DNA from: Vulcanimicrobiota bacterium
GTDB taxonomy: Bacteria; Vulcanimicrobiota; Vulcanimicrobiia; Eremiobacterales; Eremiobacteraceae
Length of the DNA: 64,000 nucleotides
Assembly (NCBI GenBank): GCA_963805945.1
Contig: CAWDVP010000006.1
Location: forward strand, 192,001 to 256,000
Direction: 5' to 3'
The position numbers and the translations under genes are program-made. The notes beneath the pieces were generated by a model. The model searched no databases. It was not told the origin of the DNA and was given only the letters and a program-made list of their open reading frames with translations. Positions 4,541 through 61,570 of this stretch are shown piece by piece (the stretch's first letter is position 1; each line of letters begins with the position of its first letter).

Positions 4541-7500
4541 GCCGCGCCTCGGATCTTCGCAACATCTGTGGTGGACCGATCTTTAGATCGCTCCTCCCAG
4601 ACGTTGTGCTCGCCGAAGAGCGCGGCCAGCTCCGCCTGCAATTCCGGCGTGATCGCCACTGCTCGCTGCAGCGGCCGGCCGTCCCCCGCACCGGCGGCGT
4701 GCAACACGATGCGACCCTCGCCGGCGCCCGCGGCGAGCACGACGTCGCGCAGCCGCACGAGGCGGTGCGCGTCGGCCGCATCGCCGAGCATGCGCACGTG
4801 CAGCGCCGGCACGACATCTCCCGAGCTTCGCTCGGGCACTACATCGAGGCCGACCGAGGTTCGCTCGGGCACTGCGTCCGCGCGAGCGGGTGATATGACC
4901 CGCGCCTTTTCGAACGGCCACGCCTCGACCGCCTGGAGGCTCAGCTCCACGCGCTCTTCTTCTCCGCCCTCTTCCAGCGGCACGGCCACGAGCGGCTTAC
5001 CCGGTGCGCGACGTTCCTTGACGCGGCCCTTGATGACGACGATGGCATCGACCGCGAAGATCGGCGCGAGCTCCGCGTACCACTTCGGAAAGACGACCGC
5101 CTCGATGAATGAGGTCTGATCCTCAAGCCGGGCGATGAGCATCTGGTCGCCGGCCTTGGTGATGACGCGGCGCGCCGAGGTGATGACGCCACCTACGGTC
5201 GCCATCTCGTCTTCGTCCGTCTCGCGCAGCGCCGCGATGCTCGATGTCGTCCGCCGTGCCAGGTCGGCCGCCTTGTCGGCGAGCGGGTGGCCGGAGATGT
5301 AGACGCCGATCGCTTCCTTCTCTTGCGCCAGACGTTGTGCGGGCGAGACGTCGGGCACCGTTGGCAGCGCGGGTGGCGGCATCGGCGCACCATCGTCGCC
5401 GCCGAACAGCGATGTCTGGCCGAGTTCGCGCTCCTGCGTGATCTGCTGGCCGTAGTCGAGCGCGCCGTCCAAGCCCGCGAGCAGCGCGCTGCGCCCGCCG
5501 AACGCGTCGAGCGCACCGGCTTTGATGAGCGATTCCAGCACGCGCCGGTTGACCTGCCGGCCGTCGACCCGCGCGCAGACGTCGGCAAGCGACTCGAAGC
5601 GCTTCTCTGCGCGCCGGGCGATGAGTTCGGCGATCGCGCCTTCGCCGACATTGCGCACTGCGCCGAGGCCGAAGCGGATCGCGCCGTCGCTCACCGTGAA
5701 GTCGGTGCCCGACTCGTTGACGTCCGGCGGCCGGATCGGCACTTTCATGGTCGCGCATTCCGCCAGGTATTCCGCCACCTTGTCGGCGTTGTTCTTCACC
5801 GACGACATGAGCGCGGCCATGAACGCCAGCGGATGGTTCGCCTTGAGCCAGGCGGTGCGGTAGGCGAGCAGACCGTAGCACACCGAGTGCGCCTTCGGGA
5901 AGCCGTAGCCGGCGAAGGGCTCGATGAACTGCCAGATCTTGCCCGCGAGAACTTCGTCGGTGCCGTTGCGCACGCAGCCCTCGATGAACTTGGCGCGCTC
6001 GACCGGGATCCGTTCTTTGATCTTCTTGCTGATGACCTTGCGCATCTCGTCCGCCTGACCCGCCGTGTAGCCGGCGATGTCGCGACAGATCTGCATGATA
6101 TTTTCCTGATAGACCGCCACTCCGTACGTCTCGGCGAGGATCGGCTCGAGCTTCGGATGCAGATAGGTGATCTTACGCTGCCCGTGTTTGCCCGCGACGA
6201 AGTCGTTGATCCACTCCATCGGACCGGGCCGGTACAGCGCCACCATCGCGATGAGGTCTTCGATGCACGTCGGCTTGAGCTCGGCGATGTAGCGCCGCAT
6301 GCCGGCGCTCTCGAGCTGGAAGATGCCGGTCGTATGCCCGGACGACAGCTCGGCGTACGTCTTGTGATCGTCGAGCGGGATGTCTTCGATGCGGAACGCC
6401 GCGTCCAATGTCCGCCGGATCTCCGCGCTCGCCCGGTCGATCACCGTGAGCGTGCGCAGGCCGAGGAAGTCCATCTTGAGCAGGCCGACCTTCTCGACCC
6501 AATCCATGGAGTATTGCGTGTTGACGTCGTCGTCGCCGAGCCGCACGAGCGGCGCGTGATCGGTCACCGGGCCCGGCGCGATGACGACGCCGGCGGCGTG
6601 CGTCGAGGCGTGGCGCGCAAGCCCCTCCACCCGCATCGCGGTGTCGAGCAGCTCGCGCGCGCGCGCGTCGCGATGGTAGATGACGTTGAGCTCGGGCACG
6701 CCGTCGATCGCCTGGCGGATTGAGATCGGGTTGGTGGGGATGTTCGGGATGAGTTTGGCGATGCGATCCACGTCCGCGAGCGGATGGGCCATGACGCGTC
6801 CGACATCGCGCACCGCGGCGCGAGCCGCCATGGTGCCGAAGGTGACGATCTGGGCGACGTGGTCCGCGCCGTATTTCTGGCGCACATAGTCGATGACTTC
6901 ATCCCGGCGCTCGTAGCAGAAATCCGTGTCGATATCCGGCATCGAGATGCGCTCGGGGTTGAGGAAGCGCTCGAAGAACAGGCCGTAGCGCAGCGGATCG
7001 ACGTCCGAGATGCGCAGCGCGTATGCGACGATGCTGCCGGCCGCCGAGCCGCGCCCCGGCCCCACCGGGATGCCCTGCTCGCGCGCATAGCGGATGAAAT
7101 CCCACACGATGAGGAAGTATGAGGCATAGCCCATGCGGTTGATGATGCCGAGCTCGTACTCCATGCGCTCCACTTGCTCGGGGGCCGGCTCGCCGTAACG
7201 CTCGCGCAAGCCCACCTCGCACAGCGAGCGCAGGTACTTCTCCGCGTCGCCCTCGCCCGCCGGCACGGGGAACTGCGGCAAGGCGAAGGTCTTGGATTCG
7301 AGATCGAAATCGACCATCTCGGCGACGTCGAGCGTCGCGTCGCAGGCGTCGGGCTCGCCGGCGAACAGCTCGCGCATCTCCTCCGCGGACTTGAAGTAGA
7401 AATCGTCGCCCTCGAAGCGCAGGCGGTCGGTGTCGGCGACCATGCGTCCGGTGCCGATGCACAGCAGCACGTCGTGGGCGGGCGCGTCGTCGCGCGCGAG

Positions 7501-8118
7501 GTAGTGCGAGTCGTTGGTGGCGACCGCCCTGACGCCGAGCTCTTTGGACAGCCGCAGGAGTTGGGCGCGCACCTTGTCCTCGGCGGCCATGTGGTGATGG
7601 TGCAGCTCGAGAAAGTAGCGGTCGCCGAAGATCGCGCGGTAGTCGCGGATCAGCTCGCGTGCGTGCGGCTCGTCATCGTGCAGCAGCGCCTGTTGCACGC
7701 CGCCGCCGAGGCAACCCGACAGCACGACCAACCCCTCCTGGTGCTGCGCGAGCAGATCGAGGTCGATGCGCGGCTTGTAGTAGTAGCCTTCGAGGAAGCC
7801 CGCGGAGACGAGCTTGAGCAGGTTCTTATAGCCGACGCGATTGGCGGCCAGCACGGTGAGGTGATATTCGTCGCGCTGGCTGCGGTCGAGACGGCCGCGC
7901 GGCGCGACGTACATCTCGCAGCCGATGATCGGCTTGACGCCTTTGGCTTTGGCGGCGAAATAGAACTCGAGCGCGCCGTAGAGCACGCCGTGATCGGTGA
8001 GCGCCAGCGCCGGCATACCCCGCTCGGCAGCCGCCGTGACCAAGTCTCCCACCCTGCAAGCGCCGTCGAGCAGCGAATACTCGCTATGGACGTGCAGATG
8101 GACGAAGCTTTTGCTCAC
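4537..8118 (-). CDS. dnaE: DNA polymerase III alpha subunit (DnaE1 type)
   Basis: PHP domain FVHLHVHSEYSLLDG, GPGRGSAAGS, SMPDIDTDF, clamp motif QTSLF, OB fold. Confidence 0.99.
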   Translation of the reverse strand: MSKSFVHLHVHSEYSLLDGACRVGDLVTAAAERGMPALALTDHGVLYGALEFYFAAKAKGVKPIIGCEMYVAPRGRLDRSQRDEYHLTVLAANRVGYKNLLKLVSAGFLEGYYYKPRIDLDLLAQHQEGLVVLSGCLGGGVQQALLHDDEPHARELIRDYRAIFGDRYFLELHHHHMAAEDKVRAQLLRLSKELGVRAVATNDSHYLARDDAPAHDVLLCIGTGRMVADTDRLRFEGDDFYFKSAEEMRELFAGEPDACDATLDVAEMVDFDLESKTFALPQFPVPAGEGDAEKYLRSLCEVGLRERYGEPAPEQVERMEYELGIINRMGYASYFLIVWDFIRYAREQGIPVGPGRGSAAGSIVAYALRISDVDPLRYGLFFERFLNPERISMPDIDTDFCYERRDEVIDYVRQKYGADHVAQIVTFGTMAARAAVRDVGRVMAHPLADVDRIAKLIPNIPTNPISIRQAIDGVPELNVIYHRDARARELLDTAMRVEGLARHASTHAAGVVIAPGPVTDHAPLVRLGDDDVNTQYSMDWVEKVGLLKMDFLGLRTLTVIDRASAEIRRTLDAAFRIEDIPLDDHKTYAELSSGHTTGIFQLESAGMRRYIAELKPTCIEDLIAMVALYRPGPMEWINDFVAGKHGQRKITYLHPKLEPILAETYGVAVYQENIMQICRDIAGYTAGQADEMRKVISKKIKERIPVERAKFIEGCVRNGTDEVLAGKIWQFIEPFAGYGFPKAHSVCYGLLAYRTAWLKANHPLAFMAALMSSVKNNADKVAEYLAECATMKVPIRPPDVNESGTDFTVSDGAIRFGLGAVRNVGEGAIAELIARRAEKRFESLADVCARVDGRQVNRRVLESLIKAGALDAFGGRSALLAGLDGALDYGQQITQERELGQTSLFGGDDGAPMPPPALPTVPDVSPAQRLAQEKEAIGVYISGHPLADKAADLARRTTSSIAALRETDEDEMATVGGVITSARRVITKAGDQMLIARLEDQTSFIEAVVFPKWYAELAPIFAVDAIVVIKGRVKERRAPGKPLVAVPLEEGGEEERVELSLQAVEAWPFEKARVISPARADAVPERTSVGLDVVPERSSGDVVPALHVRMLGDAADAHRLVRLRDVVLAAGAGEGRIVLHAAGAGDGRPLQRAVAITPELQAELAALFGEHNVWEERSKDRSTTDVAKIRGAA
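4568..4594 (+). repeat. Degenerate REP-like palindrome (family A) inside the dnaE 3' end
   Basis: GTGGTGGACCGATCTTTAGATCGCTCC compared with family A GTAGGGGCCGATCTTTAGATCGGCCC. Confidence 0.55.
4820..4878 (-). repeat. Two tandem REP-like palindromes (family C) inside the dnaE linker
   Basis: Minus strand GTAGTGCCCGAGCGAAGCTCGGG (4820-4842) and a degenerate copy GCAGTGCCCGAGCGAACCTCGG (4854-4875). Confidence 0.7.
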
Positions 8119-8129
8119 CGGACGCTAGG

Positions 8130-8143: not shown

Positions 8144-8176
8144 CTGCTCTATTTCAGCACCGTGGGGGTACGCCCT

Positions 8177-9973: not shown

Positions 9974-10040
9974 TGTAGGGGCCGAGCTTCAGCTCGGCCC
10001 GCGGGAACGAAGGGTCGACCGAAAGGTCGACCCCTACATC
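9972..10040. repeat. REPIN-like inverted doublet of family A REPs between convergent genes; likely also a terminator
   Basis: GATGTAGGGGCCGAGCTTCAGCTCGGCCC ... GGGTCGACCGAAAGGTCGACCCCTACATC; 10-bp terminal inverted repeats. Confidence 0.85.
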
Positions 10041-10045
10041 GCCAT

Positions 10046-14187: not shown

Positions 14188-14886
14188 ATGGACATCGTGA
14201 TCGTCGGAGGGCCGCACTCGGGAGTCGGCAAGACGCTCGCAAGCGAGACCGCGCTGCGCGCGCTCGCCGGGCTCGGCTATGGCGCGATCAAACTCACCGT
14301 CGCCGACGGCGAACGCGACCCCGAGCACGACCACGGCTCGTCCGCGCTCACGGTCGCGCACGCGGCTGGGATCTGCGGCCGCGGCGCCTCGTGCGGCGTG
14401 TGCGAAACGGTCTCGACGGGCGTGCCCAGCCGGCTCATCGTCAATGAAGGCGCGATCCGCAAAGAGCCCACCGATACGTGGCGCCTTTCGAACGCCGGCG
14501 CCGTCTCGGTCGCGTGGGTGATCGCGCTACGTTCCGGCGCGCCGAGCGCCATCGTCGAAGCGCTTGCCTACCTGCATCGCAAAGGAGCGCGCGGCGCGGT
14601 CATCGAGGGCACGACGGCGCTCGATTTCATGGAGCCCGTCGCATCGGTCATGGTGGCGACCGACCCGGGTCGCGCATGGAAAGACGTCGCGCGCCGTCAC
14701 GTCGCGCGCTGCGACATCGTGTTGCGCAACGTGCTGCCGTCCGCGCCAGGCGATTTGCCGGCCCCTCCGGAATTCGAAGCAGCGAATCCCACGCGCTGCG
14801 ATCTCAGCGATCCTGCCGACGCGGGCACGCGCAATTACGTCGAGCGGCTGCGCGCGCTGGCCGCATACGCGAAAAGCCGGCCCTGA
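14188..14886 (+). CDS. P-loop NTPase-like (MobB-like) protein with a His/Cys-rich insert
   Basis: GGPHSGVGKT Walker A, AIKLT, HDH...CGRGASCGVC, DTWRLSNAGA, VIEG. Confidence 0.65.
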   Translation: MDIVIVGGPHSGVGKTLASETALRALAGLGYGAIKLTVADGERDPEHDHGSSALTVAHAAGICGRGASCGVCETVSTGVPSRLIVNEGAIRKEPTDTWRLSNAGAVSVAWVIALRSGAPSAIVEALAYLHRKGARGAVIEGTTALDFMEPVASVMVATDPGRAWKDVARRHVARCDIVLRNVLPSAPGDLPAPPEFEAANPTRCDLSDPADAGTRNYVERLRALAAYAKSRP

Positions 14887-14900
14887 GGCCGGCTCTCTAC
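14875..14900 (-). repeat. GTAG-led palindrome carrying the stop codon of ORF 14188-14886
   Basis: Minus strand GTAGAGAGCCGGCCTCAGGGCCGGCT; the plus-strand loop contains the TGA. Confidence 0.6.
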
Positions 14901-18429: not shown

Positions 18430-18471
18430 GGGCCGATCTGAAGATCGGCCCCTACAAGGTCGGCCCCTACA
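18430..18471 (-). repeat. Family A REP plus a partial duplicate between rpsM and rpsK
   Basis: GGGCCGATCTGAAGATCGGCCCCTAC then AGGTCGGCCCCTACA. Confidence 0.85.
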
Positions 18472-26758: not shown

Positions 26759-27628
26759 TTATGCTCCCTCCGCCGCGGGCGCTTCTGCCGCCGCGACTGC
26801 AGCCTCTGGGGCGGTCGGATTTATCCGACCGTCCGCCGCGTCGGCTGGCACCGCTTCCGGTCGAGCAAGCTCGACCGCTCCATCAGCCGCGGGAACCCCC
26901 GCTGCGGCGGGCACCGATCCTGGCACGCCAGGAGCGGCCTTCGTCGGACGCGGACGGCGCTCGCGCGCCGGACGCGCTTCGCCCTCTTGGCGCGGCCGCG
27001 CGTCCGGCAGCACTTCGCCGAGGTAGATCCAGACCTTCACGCCGATGCGGCCGTACGTGGTGTACGCCTCGACCGCCGCGTAGTCGATGTTGGCGCGCAG
27101 CGTGTGCAGCGGCACCTTGCCGTCATGGTTGCGTTCCACGCGCGCGATCTCGGCGCCGCCGAGCCGGCCGGAGCACTGCACCTTGATGCCGCGTGCGCCT
27201 GCCTTCATGGTGCGCTGGATCGCCTGGCGCATGGCGCGCCGGAAGGCGATGCGCTTCTCGAGCTGATCGATGATGTTGTTGGCCACGAGCTTCGCGTCGA
27301 GCTCCGGGTACTTGATCTCGACCACGTTGACGTTGACCGCCTTGCCGACGACGCGCTCCAGCTTACGGCGCAGCTCTTCGATGCCCGCACCGCGCTTGCC
27401 GATGATGATGCCGGGCTTGGCCGTGTTGATCACGACGCGCACCTGGTTCGCGCGGCGCTCGATGATGACGCGCGACACGCCCGCGGAGCGCGACAATTCG
27501 TCGATCACCTGGCGGATCTTCAGATCCTCGTGCAGCCGGTACTTGTACTGCTTGCCTTCGAACCACAGCGAGTCCCATGTCCGGACGATGCCGAGGCGGA
27601 AGCCGATCGGGTTGACCTTCTGGCCCAT
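26759..27628 (-). CDS. rpsC: 30S ribosomal protein S3 with long C-terminal tail containing two REP-derived segments
   Basis: [32 protein letters not shown]. Confidence 0.99.
26807..26882. repeat. Inverted pair of family B REPs inside rpsC
   Basis: TGGGGCGGTCGGATTTATCCGACCG (26807) and CGGTCGAGCAAGCTCGACCGCTCCA (26858-26882). Confidence 0.85.
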
Positions 27629-31025: not shown

Positions 31026-32220
<1,195 letters not shown>

Positions 32221-32235
32221 TGCTTTACTCCGTCT

Positions 32236-34336
32236 CTAACTCGCGGCAGCTTTGCCGGTGTTCTTAGCGACGATCTCTTCTTCGATCGATTTCGGGACCT
32301 GGGCGTAGTGCGCGAACTCCATCGTATAGGTCGCGCGGCCTTGCGTGCGGCTGCGCAGATCGGTCGCGTAGCCGAACATCTCCGCCAGCGGCACGAACGC
32401 GGTGATCTTCTGCGCGCCGCCGGCTCCGGCTTCCTGATGCTGCACCTTGCCGCGGCGCGCCGAGATATCGCCGATGACGTCGCCCATGTGCTGGTCCGGC
32501 GTCACGACTTCGACCGCCATGACCGGCTCTTTGATGATCGGGCCTGCCGCGCGATTGCCTTCCTTGAACGCCATCGAGCCGGCGATCTTGAACGCCATCT
32601 CGTTCGAGTCGACGTCGTGGTACGAGCCGTCGAACACGGTGGCCTTGAAGTCGAGCACCGGGTAGCCGGCGAGCACGCCCGCTTGCGCCGATTCGCGGAT
32701 GCCTTGCTCGATCGGTTTGATGAACTCTTTGGGGATCGAGCCGCCGACGATCTCGTTCTCGAACTGGACGCCGGAGCCCGGCGGCAGCGGTTCGAGGCGG
32801 ATCCAGCAGTCGCCGTACTGGCCTTTGCCGCCGGTCTGGCGGATGTAGCGGCCTTCCTTCTCGACGTGCGCGTGATGGTCTCTTTGTACGCGACCTGCGG
32901 CTTGCCGACATTCGCCACGACCTTAAACTCGCGGCGCAGCCGGTCGACGATGATGTCGAGGTGCAGCTCGCCCATGCCGGAGATGATCGTCTGGCCGGTC
33001 TCTTCGTCGGTCCGCATCTTGAAGGTGGGATCTTCTTCGGCCAGAGCTTGACGAGCGACTGGCCGAGCTTCTCCTGGTCGGCCTTCGTCTTCGGCTCGAT
33101 CGCTTGGCTGATGACCGGCTCCGGGAAGGTGATGTTCTCGAGCACGATCGGGTGCTTCTCATCGCACAGCGTGTCGCCGGTGCGTCGTGTTCTTCAGGCC
33201 CACCGCCGCGGCGATGTCGCCCGCCTCGACGCTGTCGACGTCTTCGCGATGGTTGGCGTGCATGCGCAGGATGCGGCCGATGCGCTCCTTGTTGCCCTTG
33301 TTCGAGTTGTAGACGTACGAGCCGGCTTTGAGCGTGCCCGAGTACGTCCGGAAGAAGGTGAGCTTGCCGACGAACGGGTCGGTCATGATCTTGAAGGCGA
33401 GCGCGGAGAAGTGCTCGTCGTCGCTGGGCTTGCGTTCGATGATCTTGTCCGGATGGTCGGGATCGAAGCCGGTGACGGCCTCGAGGTCGAGCGGCGAGGG
33501 CAGGTAGTCGACGATGGCGTCCAGCAGCGGCTGCACGCCCTTGTTCTTGAAGGCCGAACCGCACAGCACGGGGATCGCGATGCCCTTGATGGTGGCGGCG
33601 CGCAGCGCGTTGCGCAGCTCGTCGGCCGTGATCTCCTTGCCCTCGAGGTACTTGTGGGTGAGATGGTCGTCGGTCTCGGCGACCGCCTCGATCAGCTCGG
33701 AGCGGTATTGGTGGATCTGGTCTTTCATCTCGGGCGGCGCGTCCACTTCGGACATCGCCTTGCCGAGGTCATCGGTGTAGATCGGTCGCCTTCTCGGTGA
33801 GCAGGTCGACGAAGCCTTTGAACAGGTCCTCTTGCCCGATAGGCAGCTGGACGGGTAGCGCGCGCGCGCCGAGCCGTTCGCGGATCTTGTCGACCGCGTT
33901 ATAGAAGTCGGCGCCGGTGCGGTCCATCTTATTGATGAAGATGAGACGCGGCACTTTGTATTTGTTCGCCTGGCGCCAGACGGTCTCGCGTCTGCGGCTG
34001 CACCGCGGCGACCGCGTCGAACAGCGCGACGAGGCCGTCGAGCACCCGCATGGAGCGCTCGACCTCGACCGTAAAGTCCACGTGGCCGGGCGTATCAATA
34101 ATGTTGATGCGCGCGTCGCGCCAGGTGCACGTCGTCGCGGCGGACGTGATCGTGATGCCGCGCTCCTGCTCTTGCTCCATCCAGTCCATCGTCGCCGCGC
34201 CTTCGTGCACTTCGCCCATCTTGTGGGTGCGGCCGGTATAGAAAAGGATGCGCTCCGTCGTCGTCGTCTTGCCGGCGTCGATGTGGGCTGCGATGCCGAT
34301 GTTGCGCGTGTTCGCGAGCGTGTATTGTCTGGCCAT
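32236..34336 (-). CDS. fusA: Elongation factor G; about five apparent frameshifts (likely sequence error)
   Basis: [54 protein letters not shown] spread across successive frames. Confidence 0.97.
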
Positions 34337-34343
34337 CGGAGCA

Positions 34344-34814
34344 TTACCAGCGGTAATGGGCGAACGCTTTGTTCGCCTCGGCCATGCGGTGCGTGTCCTC
34401 GCGCTTCTTGATCGCCTGGCCTTGGTTGCCTGCGGCGTCCATGATCTCGGCGGCGAGCTTGTCCGCCATCGTGCGGCCTGGGCGCGAACGCGAATATTGG
34501 ATGAGCCAGCGCATGCCCATCGCCTGGCGGCGATCCGGGCGGACCTCCATCGGCACCTGATAGGTCGCACCGCCGACGCGCCGCGGCCGCACTTCGATGA
34601 GCGGCATCACGTTGTTGAGCGCCTGGGTGAAGACTTCCATCGGGTCCTTGCTGGTCTTGCTGCCGACGATGTCGAGCGCTCCATAGACGATGCCTTCCGC
34701 GGTGGCTTTCTTTCCGCAGAGCATGATCTTGTTGATGAAGCGCGCCATGGTCCGCGAGTTGAAGCGCGGGTCGGGCAGCACTTGGCGCTTGGGCGCCGGT
34801 CCTTTACGCGGCAT
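34344..34814 (-). CDS. rpsG: 30S ribosomal protein S7
   Basis: [24 protein letters not shown]. Confidence 0.99.
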
Positions 34815-34827
34815 ATCTTCCTTTAGA

Positions 34828-35265
34828 TCACTTCGGGCGCTTCGCGCCGTACTTCGAACGAGATTGCTTCCGGTTCTGCACGCCTTGCGTGTCGAGCGTG
34901 CCGCGGATGATGTGGTAGCGGATGCCCGGCAGATCTTTCACCTTGCCGCCGCGCACGAGCACCACCGAATGCTCCTGCAGATTGTGGCCGATGCCGGGGA
35001 TGTAGGCCGTCACTTCGATGCCGTTGGTGAGCCGCACGCGCGCGACTTTGCGCAGCGCTGAGTTCGGCTTCTTCGGCGTGATCGTCTTGACTTGGGTGCA
35101 GACCCCACGGCGCTGGGGGTTGCCCTTCTTTATATGCGTGGATCGCTGCGGCAGGTCGGGGTGGCCGGGCTTGGCGCCGGTCTGCGACACCAGGAACGCC
35201 GGCGACTTCGACTTCTTCTTGACCTTTTCGCGACCGCTGCGGACCAACTGGCTGATTGTCGGCAA
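34828..35265 (-). CDS. rpsL: 30S ribosomal protein S12 with a long N-proximal insertion
   Basis: TTG start (M)[24 protein letters not shown]. Confidence 0.98.
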
Positions 35266-35467
35266 GACGACCCTCATCTGACAGAAAGCAAAAAGACAAC
35301 GTGCGCGCCGCGCAGCTGTCTCTCCCTGGGGTGTCCCGCCTAGGATCCTAAGGTGTGTCGATCGGTGGGGAGCAAACCTCCGGGGATTTTCCACCGGCAG
35401 CCGCCTGGGCGGCTGGGCCGGTCGGAATAGTACGGGCGCCTATGAGGGACACCCGCCCAACCAACGT

Positions 35468-35496
35468 ATTTTACCAAACGGTACGCCCCCGGTCAA
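35468..35496 (-). promoter_or_regulatory. Sigma70-type promoter of the rpsL (str) operon
   Basis: TTGACC-17 bp-TAAAAT with extended TG. Confidence 0.75.
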
Positions 35497-35600
35497 GCCA
35501 GACCGGCCGGATTGGTCTAGAACCCAGTTGCCGATAGTATCCGCATGGGCTGCCATGCCCGTCCCGGAGCCTATTCCCCCTTGCCGTTCAGGAGAATCCG

Positions 35601-36568
35601 ATGAAACGTCTCACCCTTCTGGCGCTCGCGTTGCTGGCCGTTGGCTGCAGCGCCAGCAACACCTCAAGCCCGGCGACCCCGACGCCCAGCAGATCTACGC
35701 GGGCAACGTGGGCAACAATTCGATCTCCGTCTTCGCCGCCGGCTCGAACGGCAACGTCGCGCCGACGTCGACCATCACCGGCGCTGCGACGCTCATCAAC
35801 CAGCCGTATTACCTGTGGGTCGACTCGAGTGGAAAGATCTGGTCGTCGAACTGGACCGGCGGCGCAGCTGGGTCGGTGACCGCGTACAGCGCGGGATCCA
35901 CCGGCAACGCCGCGCCCGTCGTGGACCTCACCGGCGCCGCGACCAACCTCGTCGGGCCATGCGGCATCTACGTCGACTCGACCGGCAAACTCTATGTCGC
36001 CAATTGCAGCAACGCCAGCGTCGCGGTGTTCGCTCCGGGAGCCACCGGTAACGTCGCGCCCGTTCAGTTCATCCAAGGCGCGACGTCGAACTTGAGCTTC
36101 CCTGAAGGCCTCGCCGTGGACACCGCCGGCAACATCTGGGTGGGCGATTGCGGGGCGGCCGGTCATGAGGCCATCTATAAGTGGCCCAATAACGCCACCG
36201 GCAACGTGGCGCCGTCCACGACGATCACGTACGCGCCGATGACGTGCGTCGACGGCGTCGCGGTCGATGGCGCCGGCCGGGTCTACGCCGCGCAGGAGTC
36301 GGGCGGCGCACCGGGCGCCGACGCGATCTATGTCTTCGCCAGCGGCGCGAGCGGCCTGACCACCCCCGTCCAGATCATCCAGGGCGTCAACACGAAGCTC
36401 AACGTCCCCTACAGCGTGCAACTCGACAACGCAGGCAACATCTGGGTGGGCAACGCCGACAACGTCGAGATGTTCCCGGGCAACGCGACGGGCAACGTGG
36501 CGCCGACCGTGTTCATCCAGGGCGCGAACACGTTGGTCAATGAGCCGTGGGGCGTGGCGCTGCACTAA
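35601..36568 (+). CDS. Lipoprotein with NHL/SMP-30-like six-blade beta-propeller; apparent frameshift near 35690
   Basis: AGGAG RBS, MKRLTLLALALLAVGC lipobox in one frame; six (G/N)xxGNVAP...I.G repeats in the other. Confidence 0.75.
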
Positions 36569-36578
36569 AGACAACGGC

Positions 36579-36632
36579 CGGTCGAGAAAACTCGACCGCT
36601 CCACACACAAGGGCCGGCACATGCCGGCCCTT
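36579..36632. repeat. Family B REP plus a second hairpin between convergent genes
   Basis: CGGTCGAGAAAACTCGACCGCTCCAC; AAGGGCCGGCACATGCCGGCCCTT. Confidence 0.75.
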
Positions 36633-36641
36633 CTTTCCACC

Positions 36642-37311
36642 CTACGTCGCCACCGCCAGCATACCGATCAAGTCCGCCAGCGCTTTGATGATCACGTCCG
36701 GCGCGACGAGCTTGCGTCGGATACGGCTTGTCCTCGAGGTCCGCCCAGCACGCCACCATGCCGGCGGCTTTCGCGCCCACGACGTCGGTCGCCGGCTCGT
36801 CGCCGACGTACATCGTAGTCTCGATCTTCATCCCCAATCGCGCGGCTGCCACCTCGAATGCACGCGGGTCCGGCTTGAAGAACCCGATCTCTTCGGACAC
36901 CACGACCGAGCCGGTGAAGCCGATGAGATCCGCCTTGAGGTACTGCAGTTCGGTCCAGCCGTTGGTGAGGATGCCGACCGGCACGTCGCGCTCGCGCAGC
37001 TCGCGCAGCATCGCCTCTGCGCCTTTCATCGGCGTGACGCGCCGCGGCGCTTCTTGCAGCGCTGCAAGACGGAAGGTGGCCGGGATCTCGCCGAGCTTCG
37101 ACTCAGGACAGCCCCAGGCGCGGAACGATTCGATGAGCGCGTCGTTCAGCCGGACTTCGCCGGAGCGGAACAGCGCGAGCGCCGTGGCGATCGCGGCCGC
37201 CGAGGGCGGCGTCGGGCACGTCTCTTTCGCGAGCTCCGTGAGCACGTCAAGTTCGAGATGGCGGTCGAAGCCCAGCGTGTGGTCGAAATCGAACATGACG
37301 GCCGAGATCAT
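36642..37311 (-). CDS. HAD-IA family hydrolase; apparent frameshift near 36715
   Basis: FDFDHTL, ILTNG, KPDPRAF, YVGDEPATDVVGAKAAGM; the other frame gives APDVIIKALADL...TAG at 36642. Confidence 0.85.
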
Positions 37312-37369
37312 GGCCTCGGCTTACGAGAAGGCCGCGGCGCGACCTTCAAGCCGCGCTTCACGGAAGACA

Positions 37370-37399
37370 TAGGGGCCGATCTAAAGATCGGCCCCTACA
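37370..37399. repeat. Family A REP downstream of rpoC (possible terminator)
   Basis: TAGGGGCCGATCTAAAGATCGGCCCCTACA. Confidence 0.85.
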
Positions 37400-37429
37400 T
37401 CAGGCCGCGTCGAGTTAGCGAGCCGTCGG

Positions 37430-41490
<4,061 letters not shown>

Positions 41491-41506
41491 ATACACCGTC
41501 TAAAGT

Positions 41507-45354
<3,848 letters not shown>

Positions 45355-45394: not shown

Positions 45395-45457
45395 GGAGCG
45401 GTCGATGGCGCTCGACCGTTTTTCTTGTTCTGTAGGGGTCGATCTTCAGATCGACCC
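45395..45457 (+). repeat. One family B and one family A REP in the rpoB leader
   Basis: GGAGCGGTCGATGGCGCTCGACCG (45395-45418) and GTAGGGGTCGATCTTCAGATCGACCC (45432-45457). Confidence 0.8.
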
Positions 45458-50118: not shown

Positions 50119-51381
50119 TTAGGGGGTGCGCGGTGGCACTCCTTCACGCGGCTCGCGCACGAATGTGAGCGCGAGTCCGCCCAGCACCATCCATACCGCG
50201 ACGAGCCCGAAGAGCGAGCGATAGCCGATGCCGAGATCGCCGGTGACGGCGCCCAAGTGGTCCACCAGCAGGCCGCCGATGATGGGCGCGGCGACCTGCG
50301 GCGCCGACGCGCCGATGTTCCACAGCGCCATGAGCGCGCCCGCGCGGCCCGGCGGCAAGAGATTGCACGCCAGCGCCCAGTCCACCGAATAGTACGCGCC
50401 CCAGCCGATCCCGAGGAACACCGACAGCACCGCGACCGGCGTCAGCGAGGTGGCGAACGCGACCGTGAGCGCGGCCGCGACGATCAGCGCGAGCGATATA
50501 TAGATGATGGATTTCTTCGATATCCGGTCGCCGAGCAAGCCCGCCGGCACGGTGCCGACGAGCGAGCATCCGACCATGAGCAGCAGCAGCGTGAGGCTGG
50601 TGGCCTGATAGCGATCGATCTTGAGGGCGAAGCGCAGATAAAAACCGAGGAACGGCAGGATCGAATACAGGCCCGCGCTCACCAGGGTGCGCGAACCGAT
50701 GAGCCACCAGAAGCTCGCGCGCAGCGGCCAGGCGGTCAGCACGGGCACGGCCTCGGGCACATCTTCCCTGCGCTCTTTGACGCCGAACACGGTGACCAGC
50801 AGCGCGGCGAGCATGATCACCGCGATCGCCGTGACGAGCCGCAAGAACCCGCTCGTGTACATCTCGGGCGTGACGTCCGGACCCGGCTGGTGGACGACGA
50901 GCTTCGCGAGCAGCAGGCCTCCCGCGGTGCCCGCCAAGCGCATCAGACCCATCACCGCGGAGGCGCTGCCCTGCGCGCTCTTGGCGACGCGGTCCGGGAT
51001 GAGCGCTTGGTACGCGCCACCGGCGATGTTGAGCAGCTGCAGCACGACGAAGGCGACCAGCACCGCCAAGAACGACGGCGCGAGCGCGAACATGTAGAGG
51101 CCGGCGAAGTTGATGAGCGTGCCGACGATGATGAACGGCATGCGCCGGCGCACGATGTCCGACCAGCGGCCGGCGCCGTACTGGATGACGATCGCGATGA
51201 GCGCCCCGCAGCCGAGCAGAATCGCCGACGCGCGGCCGTAGAACGTCGGCGGCACGAAGCGGGCGATCTCCGCTTGCAGCGCTGCGCCGAGCAGCGCGGC
51301 CCATTGCAGCTCCCAGGCGAACCAGTAGAACGACAGCGCGAACGGGTTCGGCGTCTTGACGCCTGGAGCGGTCGAATTCAT
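50119..51381 (-). CDS. MFS transporter
   Basis: About 12 TM segments, GRWSDIVRRRMPF, GLLGDRISKK. Confidence 0.9.
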   Translation of the reverse strand: MNSTAPGVKTPNPFALSFYWFAWELQWAALLGAALQAEIARFVPPTFYGRASAILLGCGALIAIVIQYGAGRWSDIVRRRMPFIIVGTLINFAGLYMFALAPSFLAVLVAFVVLQLLNIAGGAYQALIPDRVAKSAQGSASAVMGLMRLAGTAGGLLLAKLVVHQPGPDVTPEMYTSGFLRLVTAIAVIMLAALLVTVFGVKERREDVPEAVPVLTAWPLRASFWWLIGSRTLVSAGLYSILPFLGFYLRFALKIDRYQATSLTLLLLMVGCSLVGTVPAGLLGDRISKKSIIYISLALIVAAALTVAFATSLTPVAVLSVFLGIGWGAYYSVDWALACNLLPPGRAGALMALWNIGASAPQVAAPIIGGLLVDHLGAVTGDLGIGYRSLFGLVAVWMVLGGLALTFVREPREGVPPRTP

Positions 51382-51388
51382 TCGACCG
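51364..51388 (+). repeat. Family B REP spanning a stop/start (ATGA) gene junction
   Basis: TGGAGCGGTCGAATTCATTCGACCG. Confidence 0.85.
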
Positions 51389-52181: not shown

Positions 52182-52207
52182 GTGGAGCGGTCGAATTTAT
52201 TCGACCG
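52182..52207 (+). repeat. Family B REP containing the methyltransferase stop codon
   Basis: GTGGAGCGGTCGAATTTATTCGACCG. Confidence 0.85.
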
Positions 52208-53417
52208 ACGTTCGGGCAGCCTTGCACAGGATCGCCATCTTCTTCTCGCCGACGGTCGTGCACACCAACACCGCCGACGCCTCGCCGCGCGGTTTGAGCA
52301 GCGCCTCGATCGCCTCGGGCAGCAGCGGGAAGGCGCGCGTCTTGATGACGAGCGAGCCGATATCGCGTGCGCGCAGCAGCGCGCGCACCTTCTTCTCGTT
52401 GAACGGCATGGCCGCGAGCACTTCGTACCAGCGGAAGAACGGCGTCGCCGCGGCGCGCGAGGCGGTGACGTACGCGACGTTCGGATCGAGCGCGGCGGCG
52501 CCGATCGGCTCGCAGGCGGCACCGAGCAGCCCTGAGCGGATGACAGCGGCGTCCGGCTCGCCCAGCCAACCTTGGAGAAGACGCACCTCCGGCGCGCTCG
52601 CGGGATCGCCATCTAAAGGATGGACTCCGTCGGCCGCGATGACCGTCGCCCGGCGCGCGCCATGGCGGCGGGCGAGGTCGCCGCACCACGCGATCGCCTC
52701 TTTGCACACACCGCGCTCCGAGATGTACTCGAGCTCCACCGGGAAGCCGCACGCGTCGCGCAGCGCGTCCTCGGTGACGCGCAGCCCGGGCGCGATCTTC
52801 ACACCGAGCGCCGCCGCGCGCAGATCGCCGATGCGCGCGAGGATGCTGCGCAGCGGCGGGCTGTATTCCGCACCGGTCTTGGCCCGGCCGCTCGGCGTCC
52901 GCCGCGAGGGGTCCGCAAAAGCGGCGTCCATGTCCTGAAGCGGCCAGCGCAGCGCGTCGCCGATGCTGAACGCCGCTGACGGCTTCACGCCGTACACGAT
53001 CGCGTTGTGACGCGCGCAGACGAGCGCATCGGTGTCGACATCGACGCCCGAGACGGTGCCGCCCGGCGGCCGAACGCCGGCGATGGCGATGGAGTCTGAG
53101 CCGATGCCGCAGCACAGATCTGCCACCCGTTTGAAACGCGCGAAGCGCTCGGCCGTGTGGCGCGAGATCGCCTCTGACGACGCCTGCTCGTAGCCGGCGC
53201 GCGTGAAGAACATCTCGGCGGCGCGGCTGAACTTGCGCGACGCGAGCGCCCTGCGCCGCGCGAAGGCGGTCGACAGCGCTGCCGCCGCGAGCTCGGGGTC
53301 GGCCATGCGGCGGGCGAGCGCGGCGGCGGCGGGCACCTGCACTTCGGTGAACGGCGCGAGCGCGGCGAGCAGCCGTGCGCCGTCCGCGGATTCAAGCCGG
53401 TCGTACGCGTTGGTCAC
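52197..53417 (-). CDS. Class I SAM-dependent methyltransferase with THUMP-like C-terminus
   Basis: EQASS, VADLCCGIGSD, FADPSRR, EPDAAVIRSG. Confidence 0.85.
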   Translation of the reverse strand: MTNAYDRLESADGARLLAALAPFTEVQVPAAAALARRMADPELAAAALSTAFARRRALASRKFSRAAEMFFTRAGYEQASSEAISRHTAERFARFKRVADLCCGIGSDSIAIAGVRPPGGTVSGVDVDTDALVCARHNAIVYGVKPSAAFSIGDALRWPLQDMDAAFADPSRRTPSGRAKTGAEYSPPLRSILARIGDLRAAALGVKIAPGLRVTEDALRDACGFPVELEYISERGVCKEAIAWCGDLARRHGARRATVIAADGVHPLDGDPASAPEVRLLQGWLGEPDAAVIRSGLLGAACEPIGAAALDPNVAYVTASRAAATPFFRWYEVLAAMPFNEKKVRALLRARDIGSLVIKTRAFPLLPEAIEALLKPRGEASAVLVCTTVGEKKMAILCKAARTSVE

Positions 53418-53435
53418 GCTTCTGGAGCGGCCGCT

Positions 53436-54083: not shown

Positions 54084-54374
54084 GTGGAAAAACCTGGAGT
54101 GCTCGTGGGCCGATCCGTCGTCGTCCGCTCGAATGCGGACGAGCCGGAATACTACACGGACGTCCATCGGGCGCGCGTCGGCCATGAGGGCCGCGTCCAT
54201 GCGATCGTGCCGACAGACGATCGCGCCAATCCGCTCGTCAAGGTCGGCTTTGATGCTGGCACCCAGATCGTCTTCTACCGGCTCGCCGATCTGCAAGTCG
54301 ACCCCGATGCCGGGCTCGATCTCTCGAAGAAGCACGGCGTGCGCGGCAGCCACTTACCGAAGGGCGCCGGCTAA
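54084..54374 (+). CDS. Hypothetical small protein, possible SH3-like barrel
   Basis: 96-aa ORF filling the gap between minus-strand genes; alternating beta-strand pattern. Confidence 0.6.
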   Translation: MEKPGVLVGRSVVVRSNADEPEYYTDVHRARVGHEGRVHAIVPTDDRANPLVKVGFDAGTQIVFYRLADLQVDPDAGLDLSKKHGVRGSHLPKGAG

Positions 54375-55196
54375 CCACTCCAGACCGTCGACCACGCGCG
54401 GCCCGTTGCGCTCTAGGATGGAATCGTTGGGCGGGCGCAGCACCTTGCCGTCGCGCACGGCGCGCAGACTGCGCCACGGTTCGCTCGCCCGCACCGCTGG
54501 GCCGAAGTGCGTGTCATCCGAGACGATGAGGACGTCGGGATCCGCTTTCAGGATCGCCTCCGCCGTGAGGCTCGGGTACGCCTCATCGACGTCCCCGGCG
54601 ACGTTGATGCCGCCCGCGAGGCTGATGAGATCGTTGAGATAGGAGCGACCGCCGGCGGTGAATCCTGGCAACCCCAACAGATAGAGCACCGTCGGCTTGT
54701 GCCGCCGATCCTTGGTCTGTGCGGCGACGCGTTCGATGCGACGCCGTAATGCCGCTGCCAAGACCACGCCCTTCTTGATGCTCCCGCAGGCCTTGGCGAC
54801 GCCCGCGATGTCCGCGTAGAGGTCGCCGATATTCCGGTTCGGCAGATACACGACCGGCACGCGCAGCCGTAGTGCGACAGCGGACCCTTCATTCTCTTGA
54901 TCGTGCAAGGCGACGACGACGGTGGGCCGCAGCTGCGCGATCCGCTCTAGGTCCACATGCGCGAGATCGCCGACGTGCGGCAGCGCTTTGGCGGGCGCGG
55001 GATAGTCGTCGTAGGTCGTGTCGGCGACGAGATGGCGGCCGCAGTCGACGGCATACGCGATCTCGGTGAGCGACGGCGCCAGCGAGATGACTCTGATCTT
55101 ACCCGCTTGGTCTGTAGCGGTCGAATTTATTCGACCGTGAGATGCGCACCCGCCAACGAGCGCGCACGCAGCCGCGGCGATGAGGAAGCGTCTCAA
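54354..55196 (-). CDS. btuF: Cobalamin ABC transporter substrate-binding lipoprotein
   Basis: Lipobox LVGGC, RVISLAPSLTEI, LAGGINV, RNGPRVVDG; downstream of a B12 riboswitch. Confidence 0.88.
   Translation of the reverse strand: MRRFLIAAAACALVGGCASHGRINSTATDQAGKIRVISLAPSLTEIAYAVDCGRHLVADTTYDDYPAPAKALPHVGDLAHVDLERIAQLRPTVVVALHDQENEGSAVALRLRVPVVYLPNRNIGDLYADIAGVAKACGSIKKGVVLAAALRRRIERVAAQTKDRRHKPTVLYLLGLPGFTAGGRSYLNDLISLAGGINVAGDVDEAYPSLTAEAILKADPDVLIVSDDTHFGPAVRASEPWRSLRAVRDGKVLRPPNDSILERNGPRVVDGLEWLAGALR
55113..55137 (+). repeat. Family B REP in frame inside btuF
   Basis: TGTAGCGGTCGAATTTATTCGACCG encodes GRINSTA directly after the lipobox. Confidence 0.85.
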
Positions 55197-57918: not shown

Positions 57919-58934
57919 AGCTCCACCGGCCGGCGCGCTATTATAAGGAAGAACGGCACCCCGACGAACGCCAGCAGGACGCCGAGCGGCAGCTCGCTCG
58001 GCGACAGGATCGTCCGCGCGAAAGTGTCCGCCACGATCACCACCGCCGCGCCGCCGGCGGCGCTCGCCGGCAGCAGCCACGCGGCGTCCCCGCCGACGAG
58101 CTTGCGCGCGCCGTGCGGCACCATCAAGCCGACGAATCCAACGATGCCCGACACCGCGACGCACGCTGCGGCGATGAGCGCCGCCGCTGCGAGCACGAAG
58201 AAGCGCGCGCGGCCGACGCGGATGCCCAATCCTGCCGCCGCGTCCGCGCCGAGGCGCAGCACGTTGAGCGCCGGCAGCAGCAGCAGCGCCGCGAGAAATC
58301 CGGCCGCCAAGTACGCGGCGATCCACGCGACGTCGCCCCAGCTTCTGCCGCCGATGCCGCCCGCGAGCCAGCCAAGGATGGTGAGGCTATCCGACGCGCC
58401 GCTGCGCAGCAGCACGATCGTCACCATGGCGGCGCATAGCGACGAGATCGCGATGCCGCACAGCACGAGACGCAGATTGCCGCTCGGACCGCTGCCGGCG
58501 CCGAACAGCGAGACGACCGACGCGCACGCCAGGCCGCCACCGAACGCGAGAGCGGGTACGAGCGCGAACGAGACGCCGAGCCCGATGCTCACGCTCGCGG
58601 CGAGCGCGGCACCCGCGGAGACGCCGGTGACATACGGGTCGACGAGCGGATTGCGGAAGAGCGCCTGCAGCATCGCGCCCGCGACGCCCAGCCCGGCGCC
58701 GACGCAGGCGCCGATGAGCAGCCTCGGCAGGCGGATATCCCACACCACGGTGTGCGGCAGGCCTGAGGCTGCCGGGTGCGCCAGCGCGTAGACGATCGCG
58801 TCCGGTGAGATCGGCACGCTGCCGACGCCAAGCGATATGACGCCCGCCAGCAGCGCGACCGCGCTCAAGCCCACGAGCCACAATGCTCGGGGAACTGCTA
58901 CGTCAGACCGAAGTTCGGGATAGGTTGCGACCAT
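57915..58934 (-). CDS. btuC: Cobalamin ABC transporter permease (FecCD/BtuC)
   Basis: IRLPR, QALFRNPL, GFVGLMVPH, ELPLG. Confidence 0.9.
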   Translation of the reverse strand: MVATYPELRSDVAVPRALWLVGLSAVALLAGVISLGVGSVPISPDAIVYALAHPAASGLPHTVVWDIRLPRLLIGACVGAGLGVAGAMLQALFRNPLVDPYVTGVSAGAALAASVSIGLGVSFALVPALAFGGGLACASVVSLFGAGSGPSGNLRLVLCGIAISSLCAAMVTIVLLRSGASDSLTILGWLAGGIGGRSWGDVAWIAAYLAAGFLAALLLLPALNVLRLGADAAAGLGIRVGRARFFVLAAAALIAAACVAVSGIVGFVGLMVPHGARKLVGGDAAWLLPASAAGGAAVVIVADTFARTILSPSELPLGVLLAFVGVPFFLIIARRPVEL

Positions 58935-58995
58935 CGCCCAGCTCCCTTATCGCGAAGAGCTATGCAGCGGCGCGACCTTGCGGCCGCGCGCATCT

Positions 58996-59142
58996 GACTC
59001 GGGGCAGGTCTCCTGACTTCCGGATCTTTGCCTTGCGCCGCGCCTTCCCATCTCGTGCGAGACAGTGGCGATGTCGGCGGCTCCCCGGTTACAGTGGCGC
59101 GACCGCGCCGGAATCACACCGGCTTCCCTGTCGCCCCGAGCC
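58996..59142 (-). ncRNA. Cobalamin riboswitch
   Basis: AGGGAAGCCGGTGTGATTCCGGCGCGGTCGCGCCACTGTAA...GCCACTG...GGGAAGG...AAGTCAGGAGACCTGCC; P1 GGCTCGGGGC pairs with GCCCCGAGTC; upstream of the btu genes. Confidence 0.95.
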
Positions 59143-59238
59143 ACGTTGCCGTGTGGTTTACACGAATGCGGCGAGGCGACCTTTTCGGGCGTGGCGGCGA
59201 GAATGTTTCTGCCGGCCGACGACTGAAACGTCGGGCGG

Positions 59239-60660: not shown

Positions 60661-60715
60661 CGCTGGCCGGCGAGAATGTTTCCGGCACGGCGGAGGCGTA
60701 GAGACGCCCACCGGC

Positions 60716-61570
60716 ATGCAGTATTTCGAACCGAACTTCGTCGAGGAAGCCCTCGCCTTGCTCGAACAGCTCGGTCCGAGCGCGCGCGTGCTCGCCGGCG
60801 GCACGCTGCTCGGTCCGGAGGTGCGCGCAGCGTCCGGATCGACGAGCGCGATCGTCAACATCAAACGCATCTCCGAACTGCGCGATATCGACTTCGATGG
60901 CCAGGCGCTGCACATCGGCGCGCTCGCGACGGCCCGCGATCTCGCCGAGAACGATTTGGTCCGGCGGCACGCGCCGTTGCTCTCGCTGGCCGCCGCCTCG
61001 CTGGGTGCGACGCAATTGCGCAACGTCGCCACCATCGGCGGCAACCTCTGCTCGGGCCATCACGCGGCGGATCTCGGCGCTGCGCTGCTCGCCTGCGACG
61101 CGCGGTGCGTCATCGCGAACCTCATCACGGGGCCGGCGACGATGCCGGTGGCGGAGTTCTTCCGGCCCGGCGGGCACGCTCTCGAAGAGGGCGCGATCCT
61201 CACCGCGATCGAGATCCCGGCGAGCTCGGCGCACGTCTCCTATGTGAAGATGCAGACGCGCCGCGCGTTCGAGATGGCGATCATCGCGGTGGGCGTCGTC
61301 CTGGCGCATGACTCAGTACGGATCGCTCTCGGCGGCGCCGCGCCGACGCCGGTGCGTGCCGTCCACGGCGAAAAGACGTGGACCGACGGTCGAATACATT
61401 CGACCGCTCCAGACGCGGTAGGGCGTGAGGCCGGTCGCGTCGCCGCGGCGAAGGACTGCGATCCGGTCACCGACCACCGCGCCTCAGCCGAATATCGTCG
61501 GCATCTCGTCGCTGTGCTCACGGAGCGCGCGCTGCTCGAGGCTGCCGCCGCGCACGGATCTGGGCGCTGA
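60716..61570 (+). CDS. Xanthine dehydrogenase/CoxM-family FAD-binding subunit
   Basis: LAGGT, QLRNVATIGGNL, DHRASAEYRR; ATG at 60716. Confidence 0.92.
   Translation: MQYFEPNFVEEALALLEQLGPSARVLAGGTLLGPEVRAASGSTSAIVNIKRISELRDIDFDGQALHIGALATARDLAENDLVRRHAPLLSLAAASLGATQLRNVATIGGNLCSGHHAADLGAALLACDARCVIANLITGPATMPVAEFFRPGGHALEEGAILTAIEIPASSAHVSYVKMQTRRAFEMAIIAVGVVLAHDSVRIALGGAAPTPVRAVHGEKTWTDGRIHSTAPDAVGREAGRVAAAKDCDPVTDHRASAEYRRHLVAVLTERALLEAAAAHGSGR
61387..61411 (-). repeat. Family B REP in frame inside the FAD subunit
   Basis: CGGTCGAATACATTCGACCGCTCCA encodes GRIHSTAP. Confidence 0.85.

Follow-up and report, generated by a model that had tools for sequence, protein, structure and literature searches.

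How do short palindromes of a kind named for its position outside genes come to lie inside protein-coding sequence, and do the peptides that they encode matter to the host? This question was raised by a stretch of 64,000 nucleotides from a soil-dwelling Vulcanimicrobiota bacterium, which carries the S10-spc-alpha cluster and rpoBC, and in which a first-pass annotation had described three families of hairpin repeats, A, B and C. The whole stretch is referred to as the window; it corresponds to G000:C6:192001-256000, where G000 is the genome analysed, and coordinates without a contig prefix are window positions. The three families are genuine repetitive extragenic palindromes (REPs) of the type mobilised by REP-associated tyrosine transposases (RAYTs). 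The best explanation as a whole, which we hold with moderate confidence, is that they arrived in RAYT-spread waves and that the copies are passengers at re-used permissive sites.

Repeat families and their location

The genome (2.3 Mb, 66% GC, 82% complete) was annotated with a purpose-trained hexamer model, which called 2441 genes (83% coding). Since frameshifts split several long genes, coding claims for REP copies were compared against orthologs wherever possible. The splits in EF-Tu, EF-G, RpoB, RpoC and a HAD gene (window 31026-45354 and others) are most likely assembly errors. Six congeners (G001-G006) and the further relatives G009, G011, G015 and G042 were used for comparison. The family tallies of the profile searches also take in the unpublished genomes G016 and G013, on which no claim made here depends. 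In a tree of two genes, for which the rows of G003 and G004 were partial, G000 branched off first within the genus.

Copies were counted at 0-1 mismatch to the family pattern, and two fifth-order Markov genomes served as the control. A total of 140 A, 167 B and 53 C copies were identified in G000 and none in the control, which bears out the abundance beyond chance suspected from the window. A log-odds scan with a threshold of 22 bits or more yielded 164, 173 and 80 copies, respectively, and its own control yielded none. The repeats are 23-26 nt long with GTAG or GGAG heads, and the folding z of four clear copies was between -4.7 and -6.6. The compensatory stem changes first noticed in the window were upheld in the larger set: stem pair 11/16 of B was A-T in 120, G-C in 25 and C-G in 14 copies (n=167), and pair 11/18 of A was T-A in 65, C-G in 57 and A-T in 11 copies (n=140). 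The spacer of A, given earlier as six bases, is in fact a middle of eight bases between the CGA and TCG arms. The head of A and C is GTAG, position 2 of B is G in 139/167 copies, and the B copies of G002 are mostly GTAG-headed. Singlets prevailed in all families (B 119/167, C 42/53, A 85/140), and the inverted doublet is not the usual unit for any of them. Of 72 further loci with the B repeat, 71 were in Candidatus Eremiobacteraeota records.

The families differed in their position relative to genes. Only 3/140 A copies were wholly inside called ORFs (open reading frames), as expected from the window, where A had appeared almost wholly intergenic, against 58/167 B copies (p 2e-14) and 21/53 C copies. 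A further 28 A and 14 B copies overlapped gene ends, mostly as stop codons. The majority of B and C copies are still extragenic, with 35% and 40% inside ORFs. Across the genome 72/167 B copies were inside or overlapping an ORF, and the window is richer in coding copies than the genome. There, the earlier count of eight in ten held: six copies are inside genes (rpsC and rpoC twice each, a BtuF-like and a CutM-like gene), one supplies an ATG (51365) and one a stop (52184). The other two are the intergenic copy at 45395 and the copy at 36579, which is coding only through an assembly frameshift. Of six frames, 3.4 are open in A, 4.9 in B and 5.2 in C. Translation of B uses five frames, from both strands, and not just the three of the reported readings GAVEFIRP, GRINSTAP and VE-stop. 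Hosts of in-frame B or C copies include uS3, RpoC, DnaE, ValRS, CarB and the activation loop of a PASTA kinase; an in-frame copy adds some eight residues to a flexible loop or tail.

Two unusual arrangements were also observed. Tandem in-frame B arrays with periods of 36-45 nt occur inside genes (L337, L129, L359, L063; window 37541-37792), which suggests local amplification after insertion. Double-headed elements, with the tetranucleotide head on both strands, were located at G005:C2:17502, G005:C3:227906, G002:C1:821470 and G009:C3:114126; they may be intermediates of orientation flips by template switching.

A transposase for family A and orphan families B and C

A Y1 transposase gene was identified at G000:C3:119579-120109 with inward-facing (inverted) A copies on both sides. 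The protein passes the NCBIfam RAYT model NF047646 (100.1 against a cut-off of 80 bits), the best PDB match of its family profile is 4ER8, the E. coli TnpA-REP, and residues H66, H68, Y125, N129 and P130, which include the HUH motif and the catalytic tyrosine, are invariant across 16 RAYTs of the family. The complete unit, or REPtron (G000:C3:119548-120182; L001, L145), is a low-GC insertion of about 0.7 kb between two convergent genes. The RAYT gene has 57% GC, nothing separates the flanking genes in G001, G002 and G003, the stops of the two genes abut in three congeners, and the A pattern has one match, in 1/5 congeners. The low GC, the joined flanks and the near absence of A in the congeners indicate that A and its RAYT are recent and private. 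The A RAYT has therefore newly arrived in this lineage rather than having been inherited in place.

A RAYT flanked by the same REPs, as anticipated, was thus located for A (on contig C3) and not for B or C. In G000 (82% complete) no RAYT was detected beyond the A locus; none was detected in 6/6 congeners with a Pfam or family profile search, nor adjoining 134 metagenome B loci. No B-flanked candidate mobiliser gene was found, B had no match on viral contigs, and a Y2 transposase search gave 0/7 genomes, with a control that likewise gave no signal. Exact B copies numbered 129 in G002, 142 in G005 and 151 in G006, and 5, 1 and 0 in G001, G003 and G004; C had one exact copy in G002. RAYTs of the sister genera g4 and g10 are flanked by B-like repeats, which have GGAG heads in g4. 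As such repeats flank RAYTs in sister genera and none in the congeners, B is a RAYT-type REP that is orphaned in this genus. B predates the genus, and neither B nor C has a detectable RAYT today. The assignment to RAYT-type REPs in the first-pass annotation is thereby supported, by the cognate REPtron for A and by the sister genera for B.

In family f1 (loci L004-L024) nearly each RAYT has its own distinct REP, including GGAG-headed ones, and these loci form a matched set of enzyme-hairpin pairs. The RAYT tree was poorly resolved. In G002, a pair of inward-facing B-like copies encloses a reading frame whose hexamer content is atypical (L187:17982-18642); we take it to be MutY-like from its sequence.

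Copies inside genes are insertions

Of the 82 in-ORF copies, 29 were spanned by an ortholog alignment, 18 were in tails or ends beyond the alignment, and for the remaining 35 no ortholog was present in the relatives' DNA compared. Of the 72 host ORFs, 50 were scanned against Pfam and 45 of these had matches; genes of the window had a scan of their own. Empty orthologous sites in relatives demonstrate insertion into coding sequence, and the REPs supply start and stop codons, which is the remodelling of gene ends that had been proposed. The analysis was also reversed: B copies of relatives that are internal to proteins with G000 orthologs on both sides numbered 14/64 in G002 and 22/134 in metagenome loci. 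The same test on loci L073-L144 gave 19/92; their source genomes may overlap those already examined, and the result is not independent.

In-gene B copies were more decayed than intergenic ones (mismatches 40/1140 against 41/2147, p 0.006). Changes within genes were lowest at codon position 2 (6/396 against 34/744, p 0.007), although the consensus composition could bias this comparison. The position-2 constraint would be an independent sign that in-gene B copies are translated, and together with the greater decay it is expected for older, translated sequence. The motif GR[IMVL][NH][SP]TA, a form of the peptide put forward for a proteome search, occurred 21 times in the proteome and was absent from shuffled proteomes.

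The host proteins can be compared at individual sites. Both uS3 and RpoC have long variable tails without REPs in 5/5 congeners, and in G000 each tail still closes, in frame, with the conserved motif. The tails therefore predate the arrival of the REPs, which speaks against REP peptides as functional modules. A C copy at G000:C6:96404 (L434:12192-14300, minus strand) is located in the activation segment of a PASTA-domain Ser/Thr kinase and adds Ser/Thr residues. This segment has 36 residues in G000 and 23-33 in 16 relatives (27 in 12 of them), with 10/26 relatives not captured by the search pattern; in G002 it is shortened instead. For RibH, the values were 53 in G000 against 39-49 in 23/26 relatives.

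Re-use of REP sites

Several loops and linkers were struck more than once. The CarB loop is variable in length, at 33 to 77 residues across 13 relatives, and carries B in four genomes and three frames. In the MutS2 linker, G000 carries C where relatives carry B in one orientation or the other; in the ImuB linker, the family is B for G000, C for G002 and a third one for G011; and a penicillin-amidase linker was struck by different families or orientations. The presence of different peptides, or none, at one loop argues against peptide function, and points to in-frame REP peptides as tolerated passengers, not functional peptide modules.

Re-use was also observed between genes. At 55 intergenic REP sites of relatives, G000 has an A copy within 8 nt and in the same orientation at nine, for which the null mean was 1.0 and none of 5000 permutations reached the observed value; B was found at five (null 0.9) and C at two (null 0.3). 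This null matches gap class and length, not hidden hot spots. A apparently overwrites old B sites; among 11 coding sites with a REP in both genomes, none had turned from B into A.

In the cleaner pairs of empty and filled sites, the 3' end of the hairpin is sharp, whereas extra bases on the head side vary in number, which would fit cutting at loosely defined positions close to the head. A fixed 24-nt unit that always keeps the reading frame was considered and found no support: net lengths ranged from -27 to +24 residues in proteins and from -6 to +38 nt in DNA, and G015, with a 24-nt family, has 0/65 copies inside genes. One near-clean insertion of 23-24 nt was seen at L348.

Orphan families, RAYT-linked families and strand polarity

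Families linked to a RAYT were rarely inside genes (A of G000 3/140, G009 1/87, G015 0/65, G011 2/31; 0-6%), whereas orphan families reached 24-40% overall (B and C of G000 as given above, G002 17/66). In G042, which is 55% complete and has no detected RAYT, 1/12 copies were intragenic. All orphan cases are from one genus, so that this is a contrast and not a rule.

Three candidate causes were rejected. The GGAG head is not the key to genes: 45/128 GGAG-headed and 7/21 GTAG-headed B copies were intragenic, C is GTAG-headed, and none of 20 GGAG singlets of G009 was in a gene. Stop codons alone do not keep A outside genes, since they predict a 0.7-fold difference and a 24-fold one was observed. 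The third candidate, enrichment of survivors inside genes, is taken up below.

REP strand was strongly polarised in relatives. Beyond 1.2 Mb of G002:C1 (to 2.2 Mb), 58/63 listed copies are on one strand, against 20 and 17 on the two strands before it; this breakpoint was chosen after seeing the list. In G005, 57/58 listed copies of contigs C3 and C4 are on one strand, and in G011 the counts were 13/13 (C8), 11/11 (C9) and 19/20 (C10). The polarity covers about half of the chromosome and involves two different REP families, with and without a RAYT. In 58 copies viewed in context, REP strand was independent of the strand of the host or neighbour gene, and dnaA is located in the unpolarised (mixed) part of G002 and G005. 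No strand bias of REPs was seen in G000. The direction of the polarity agrees with the lagging-strand-template targeting of IS200/IS605 elements; the one-armed pattern does not follow from it.

Elements and host genes in the window

By the log-odds scan, the window has 6 A, 10 B and 2 C copies that are clear, or 18 in all. With the degenerate copies (4568-4594 and three in the rpoC tail) and the hairpin at 14872-14900, the total is 23, close to the roughly 24 announced earlier (Table 1).

Table 1. REP copies, related hairpins and host genes located in the window.
Feature	Position	Strand	Remarks
dnaE (DNA polymerase III alpha)	4537-8118	-	Two C copies in linker, A-like copy in tail
Degenerate A-like REP	4568-4594	+	Within 15-codon insertion at DnaE C-terminus; insertion absent in 5/5 congeners
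Family C REP	4820-4842	-	In frame in dnaE (VVPERSSG); G002 also has C here
Decayed family C REP	4853-4875	-	In dnaE; tandem with C copy 4820-4842
Family A REP	9975-10000	+	Intergenic; inverted pair with 10012-10037
Family A REP	10012-10037	-	Intergenic; inverted pair with 9975-10000
GTAG hairpin, then T run	14872-14900	-	Single copy in genome
Family A REP	18430-18455	-	Between rpsM and rpsK (presumed names)
rpsC (uS3)	26759-27628	-	Variable Ala/Pro-rich tail with two B copies, absent in 5/5 congeners
Family B REP	26808-26831	+	rpsC tail, GRINPTAP
Family B REP	26858-26881	-	rpsC tail, GAVELARP
Family B REP	36579-36602	-	Intergenic; seems within HAD gene only via assembly frameshift
Family A REP	37373-37398	-	Directly downstream of rpoC
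rpoC, 3' part	37430-38758	-	Acidic tail, holding two clear B copies and three decayed ones; ends in conserved ISELD, in frame
Decayed B copy	37541-37564	-	rpoC tail, 4 mismatches
Decayed B copy	37592-37615	-	rpoC tail, 5 mismatches
Family B REP	37622-37645	-	rpoC tail, GAVEFIRP
Family B REP	37667-37690	-	rpoC tail, GAVEFIRP
Decayed B copy	37769-37792	-	rpoC tail, 3 mismatches
Family A REP	41465-41490	-	Between rpoB and rpoC; G005 and G006 have B here, same orientation
Degenerate family B REP	45395-45418	+	Intergenic, upstream of rpoB
Family A REP	45432-45457	+	Intergenic
Family B REP	51365-51388	+	Gives ATG and first residues (MNSTAP) of MFS transporter (50119-51381, -)
Family B REP	52184-52207	+	Gives final codons and stop of THUMP-like methyltransferase gene (52197-53417, -)
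Family B REP	55114-55137	+	BtuF-like binding protein gene (54354-55196, -), directly after signal peptide
Family B REP	61387-61410	-	Inside PF03450 domain of CutM-like flavoprotein (60716-61570, +)

The frame of the HAD gene that agrees with orthologs ends at 36642-36644. The names rpsM and rpsK were recognised from translations. The hairpin at 14872-14900, listed earlier as an extra variant, is probably an intrinsic terminator and not a member of a REP family. The CutM-like protein has about four residues more, net, than in 5/5 congeners, at a place that aligns to a gap in the solved CutM sequence.

Two further features of the window were noted. A repeat-rich, beta-propeller-like gene with NHL matches (35528-36568, plus strand) lies between rpsL and the HAD gene, and a cobalamin riboswitch (58986-59153, minus strand) lies upstream of Btu-like ABC and TonB receptor genes; an Rfam scan of the window returned this riboswitch only.

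Proposed mechanism and alternative explanations

In the explanation that we favour, families A, B and C would be three waves of hairpins spread by RAYT (HUH/Y1) transposases on single-stranded DNA. Most copies would arrive as lone hairpins, sharp at the 3' end and variable on the head side, and some would thus fall in frame. In B and C, about five of the six frames are open, and selection would retain only copies in loops, linkers and tails that were already variable in length. Such permissive sites would be used again, later copies of the same or another family landing on or overwriting earlier ones in either orientation, and overwriting of like by like would preserve the reading frame. The younger family A, 2 nt longer and richer in stops, would take intergenic B sites and seldom coding ones. 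The peptides would be tolerated, and uniformity would be maintained at the level of the hairpin sequence.

Several observations weigh against this account. In G002, G005 and G006, exact B copies number 129-151 and occupy mostly unshared sites, yet these genomes, 97-98% complete, yielded no RAYT. No unit length emerges from the net insertion lengths, which scatter. The high intragenic share of the orphan families is not accounted for by head, length or open frames, taken singly. Survivor enrichment was not seen either, since leftovers in B-poor genomes were 0/13 internal, with one in a tail, although some of these may be chance matches; age fits the greater decay of in-gene copies and not these leftovers. 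Lastly, two coding sites are shared between species with identical REP DNA amid drifted flanks, which selection on the hairpin would also give.

That last point leads to the strongest alternative, in which the hairpin has a host function on DNA or mRNA, as a protein-binding site or a processing or pausing signal, and B is kept everywhere and outlives its RAYT. The shared sites are in EtfB and in the BtuF-like gene (at 55114-55137, where the DNA is identical in G002); 24-27 nt are identical, third positions included, while the flanks have diverged. The same two top B variants occur in species that are 83-89% identical in protein, stem pairs are compensatory, and B persists without a RAYT. We nevertheless consider this function unlikely: most sites are unshared between species, three congeners are nearly without B, both orientations occur inside genes, and decay is greater in copies within genes. 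Stems would likewise stay perfect under overwriting or template switching.

Somewhat less probable still is the spread of B by another single-strand process, independent of RAYTs, that enters genes more readily. The RAYT searches in six congeners and beside the 134 metagenome loci, and that for a B-flanked candidate gene, all ended without a hit, and B and C are mostly singlets, against the mostly clustered copies of G009 and G015. G011, however, combines a RAYT and singlet REPs with the strand polarity of the B-rich genomes, which shows that a RAYT can make this pattern, and B-like repeats flank RAYTs in g4 and g10. RAYT loss that leaves REPs behind is described in the accessible text of two sources (PMC3333891; 10.1101/2024.10.14.618302), and assemblies can drop repeat-flanked genes.

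We also judge it improbable, and a little more so, that the inserted peptides are selected modules altering the behaviour of essential proteins, as the first-pass annotation had inferred. Some inserts are within domains, such as the kinase activation segment that gains Ser/Thr; a few are common to species, the motifs far exceed shuffled proteomes, and position 2 is constrained. Against this, five frames on the two strands give rise to the peptides, close relatives have different peptides or none in one and the same loop, the tails predate the REPs, and conservation of the DNA at shared sites equals or exceeds what the peptide requires; the position-2 constraint shows translation only. Intragenic copies are most likely tolerated rather than useful.

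That coding placement is a gene-calling artefact of a GC-rich, frameshift-prone assembly is scarcely credible and largely refuted by the ortholog tests: the split EF-Tu, EF-G, RpoB and RpoC, the HAD case, probably one A case (a UbiD-UbiA fusion) and the 35/82 copies without an ortholog favour it, against 29/82 copies flanked on both sides by ortholog alignment, the uS3 and RpoC tails that finish in frame in conserved motifs, and the agreement of independent assemblies (G002 and the metagenome loci).

Relation to known systems

Rickettsia palindromic elements (RPEs) were named earlier as the main case of palindromes inside genes; RPE-1 is over 100 bp long, and RPEs are not known to be linked to RAYTs. 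That view is not supported, as the accessible text of Di Nocera 2013 (PMC3733652) already gives short GTAG REPs inside genes of many species, and supplement 3 has, by our count, 70 rows for Opitutus terrae. It also reports heads that supply stop codons (TAG) and proposes that inserts in linkers are neutral. The same intragenic REPs are restated in PMC6006769, where REPs inside RAYT genes are described. The presence of REPs in genes is therefore not a new claim, and our case is a strong new example of a known behaviour. The Opitutus REPs resemble ours in their in-frame short GTAG hairpins, 7-8 residue peptides and TAG-supplying heads, and hosts there and in other species include DnaE2, helicases, tRNA synthetases and pseudouridine synthases. 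They differ in that more than half are dimers or groups, whereas ours are mostly singlets, and the GGAG head is not among the variants listed in that text. Our case, in contrast, is from another phylum, includes the core genes rpsC and rpoC, and has empty or differently filled orthologous sites across a genus. GGAG had no match in the main texts of PMC3733652 and PMC6006769, although figures and two PMC3733652 supplements may bear on it. The Rickettsia RPEs discussed in PMC3733652 are likewise in frame in housekeeping genes, and RPE-4 and RPE-6 have CGTC tags, unlike the 23-26 nt GTAG- or GGAG-headed repeats here.

Family A resembles the E. coli REPtron, as far as the accessible texts describe it (4ER8; PMC3333891; PMC6006769), in its HUH-Y1 protein, Y...NP signature, inward-facing repeats and hundreds of copies. 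It is a recent insertion and not an old vertical locus, the stems are perfect and without the bulge of E. coli REPs, and B and C are without a RAYT in the genomes searched. For E. coli, integration by recombination with a resident REP has been proposed (PMC3333891, in its accessible part). In Pseudomonas, the available text on REPINs suggests overwriting at conserved spaces (10.1101/2024.10.14.618302) and describes both a change of repeat family at one orthologous space with the exchange of RAYTs and a family abundant without its RAYT (also 10.1101/2021.07.10.451892). Those REPINs are inverted doublets and almost exclusively extragenic, whereas the repeats here are mostly singlets, and re-use falls within 8 nt and extends to coding loops. 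The polarity resembles the strand preference of the HUH-dependent IS200/IS605 elements as described in the portions available (PMC3971601; PMC3333891), and runs in the direction of the gene majority; here it concerns REPs, in relatives only, over about half of a chromosome and not mirror-wise on both replichores.

In the literature covered, with subscription papers outside that coverage, nothing was found on REPs in this phylum, on REP strand polarity, on GGAG-headed REPs or on orphan versus intragenic status. New here are the GGAG head, the intragenic shares of 0-6% in RAYT-linked and 24-40% in orphan families, A apparently overwriting B, and half-chromosome strand-polarised REPs in relatives.

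Implications

To our knowledge, the REP transposition step has not been caught in vivo. Reads of runs X1, X2, X3 and X5 were mapped; they were dominated by other organisms and gave no strain-level or RNA evidence. A bolder proposal, which we put forward as possible though rather unlikely, is that in this family of Eremiobacterota a REP with a GGAG head inserts itself, as a lone hairpin, into a single strand of a single replication arm, continues or is refreshed after the loss of its RAYT, and repeatedly rewrites the same protein loops. If so, the repeat, not the protein, would set part of the sequence of dozens of enzymes across the genus, and would leave a readable record of the REP transposition step.

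This genus offers a natural experiment on how REPs are copied: one genome holds three families of opposite habits, congeners can be compared that have or lack each family, orthologous sites occur both empty and filled, re-use of sites is resolved to a few bases, and strand polarity is seen. The short repeat steadily supplies core proteins with loop insertions of 7-13 residues, one of them in a kinase activation segment, and these insertions map where core proteins tolerate change.

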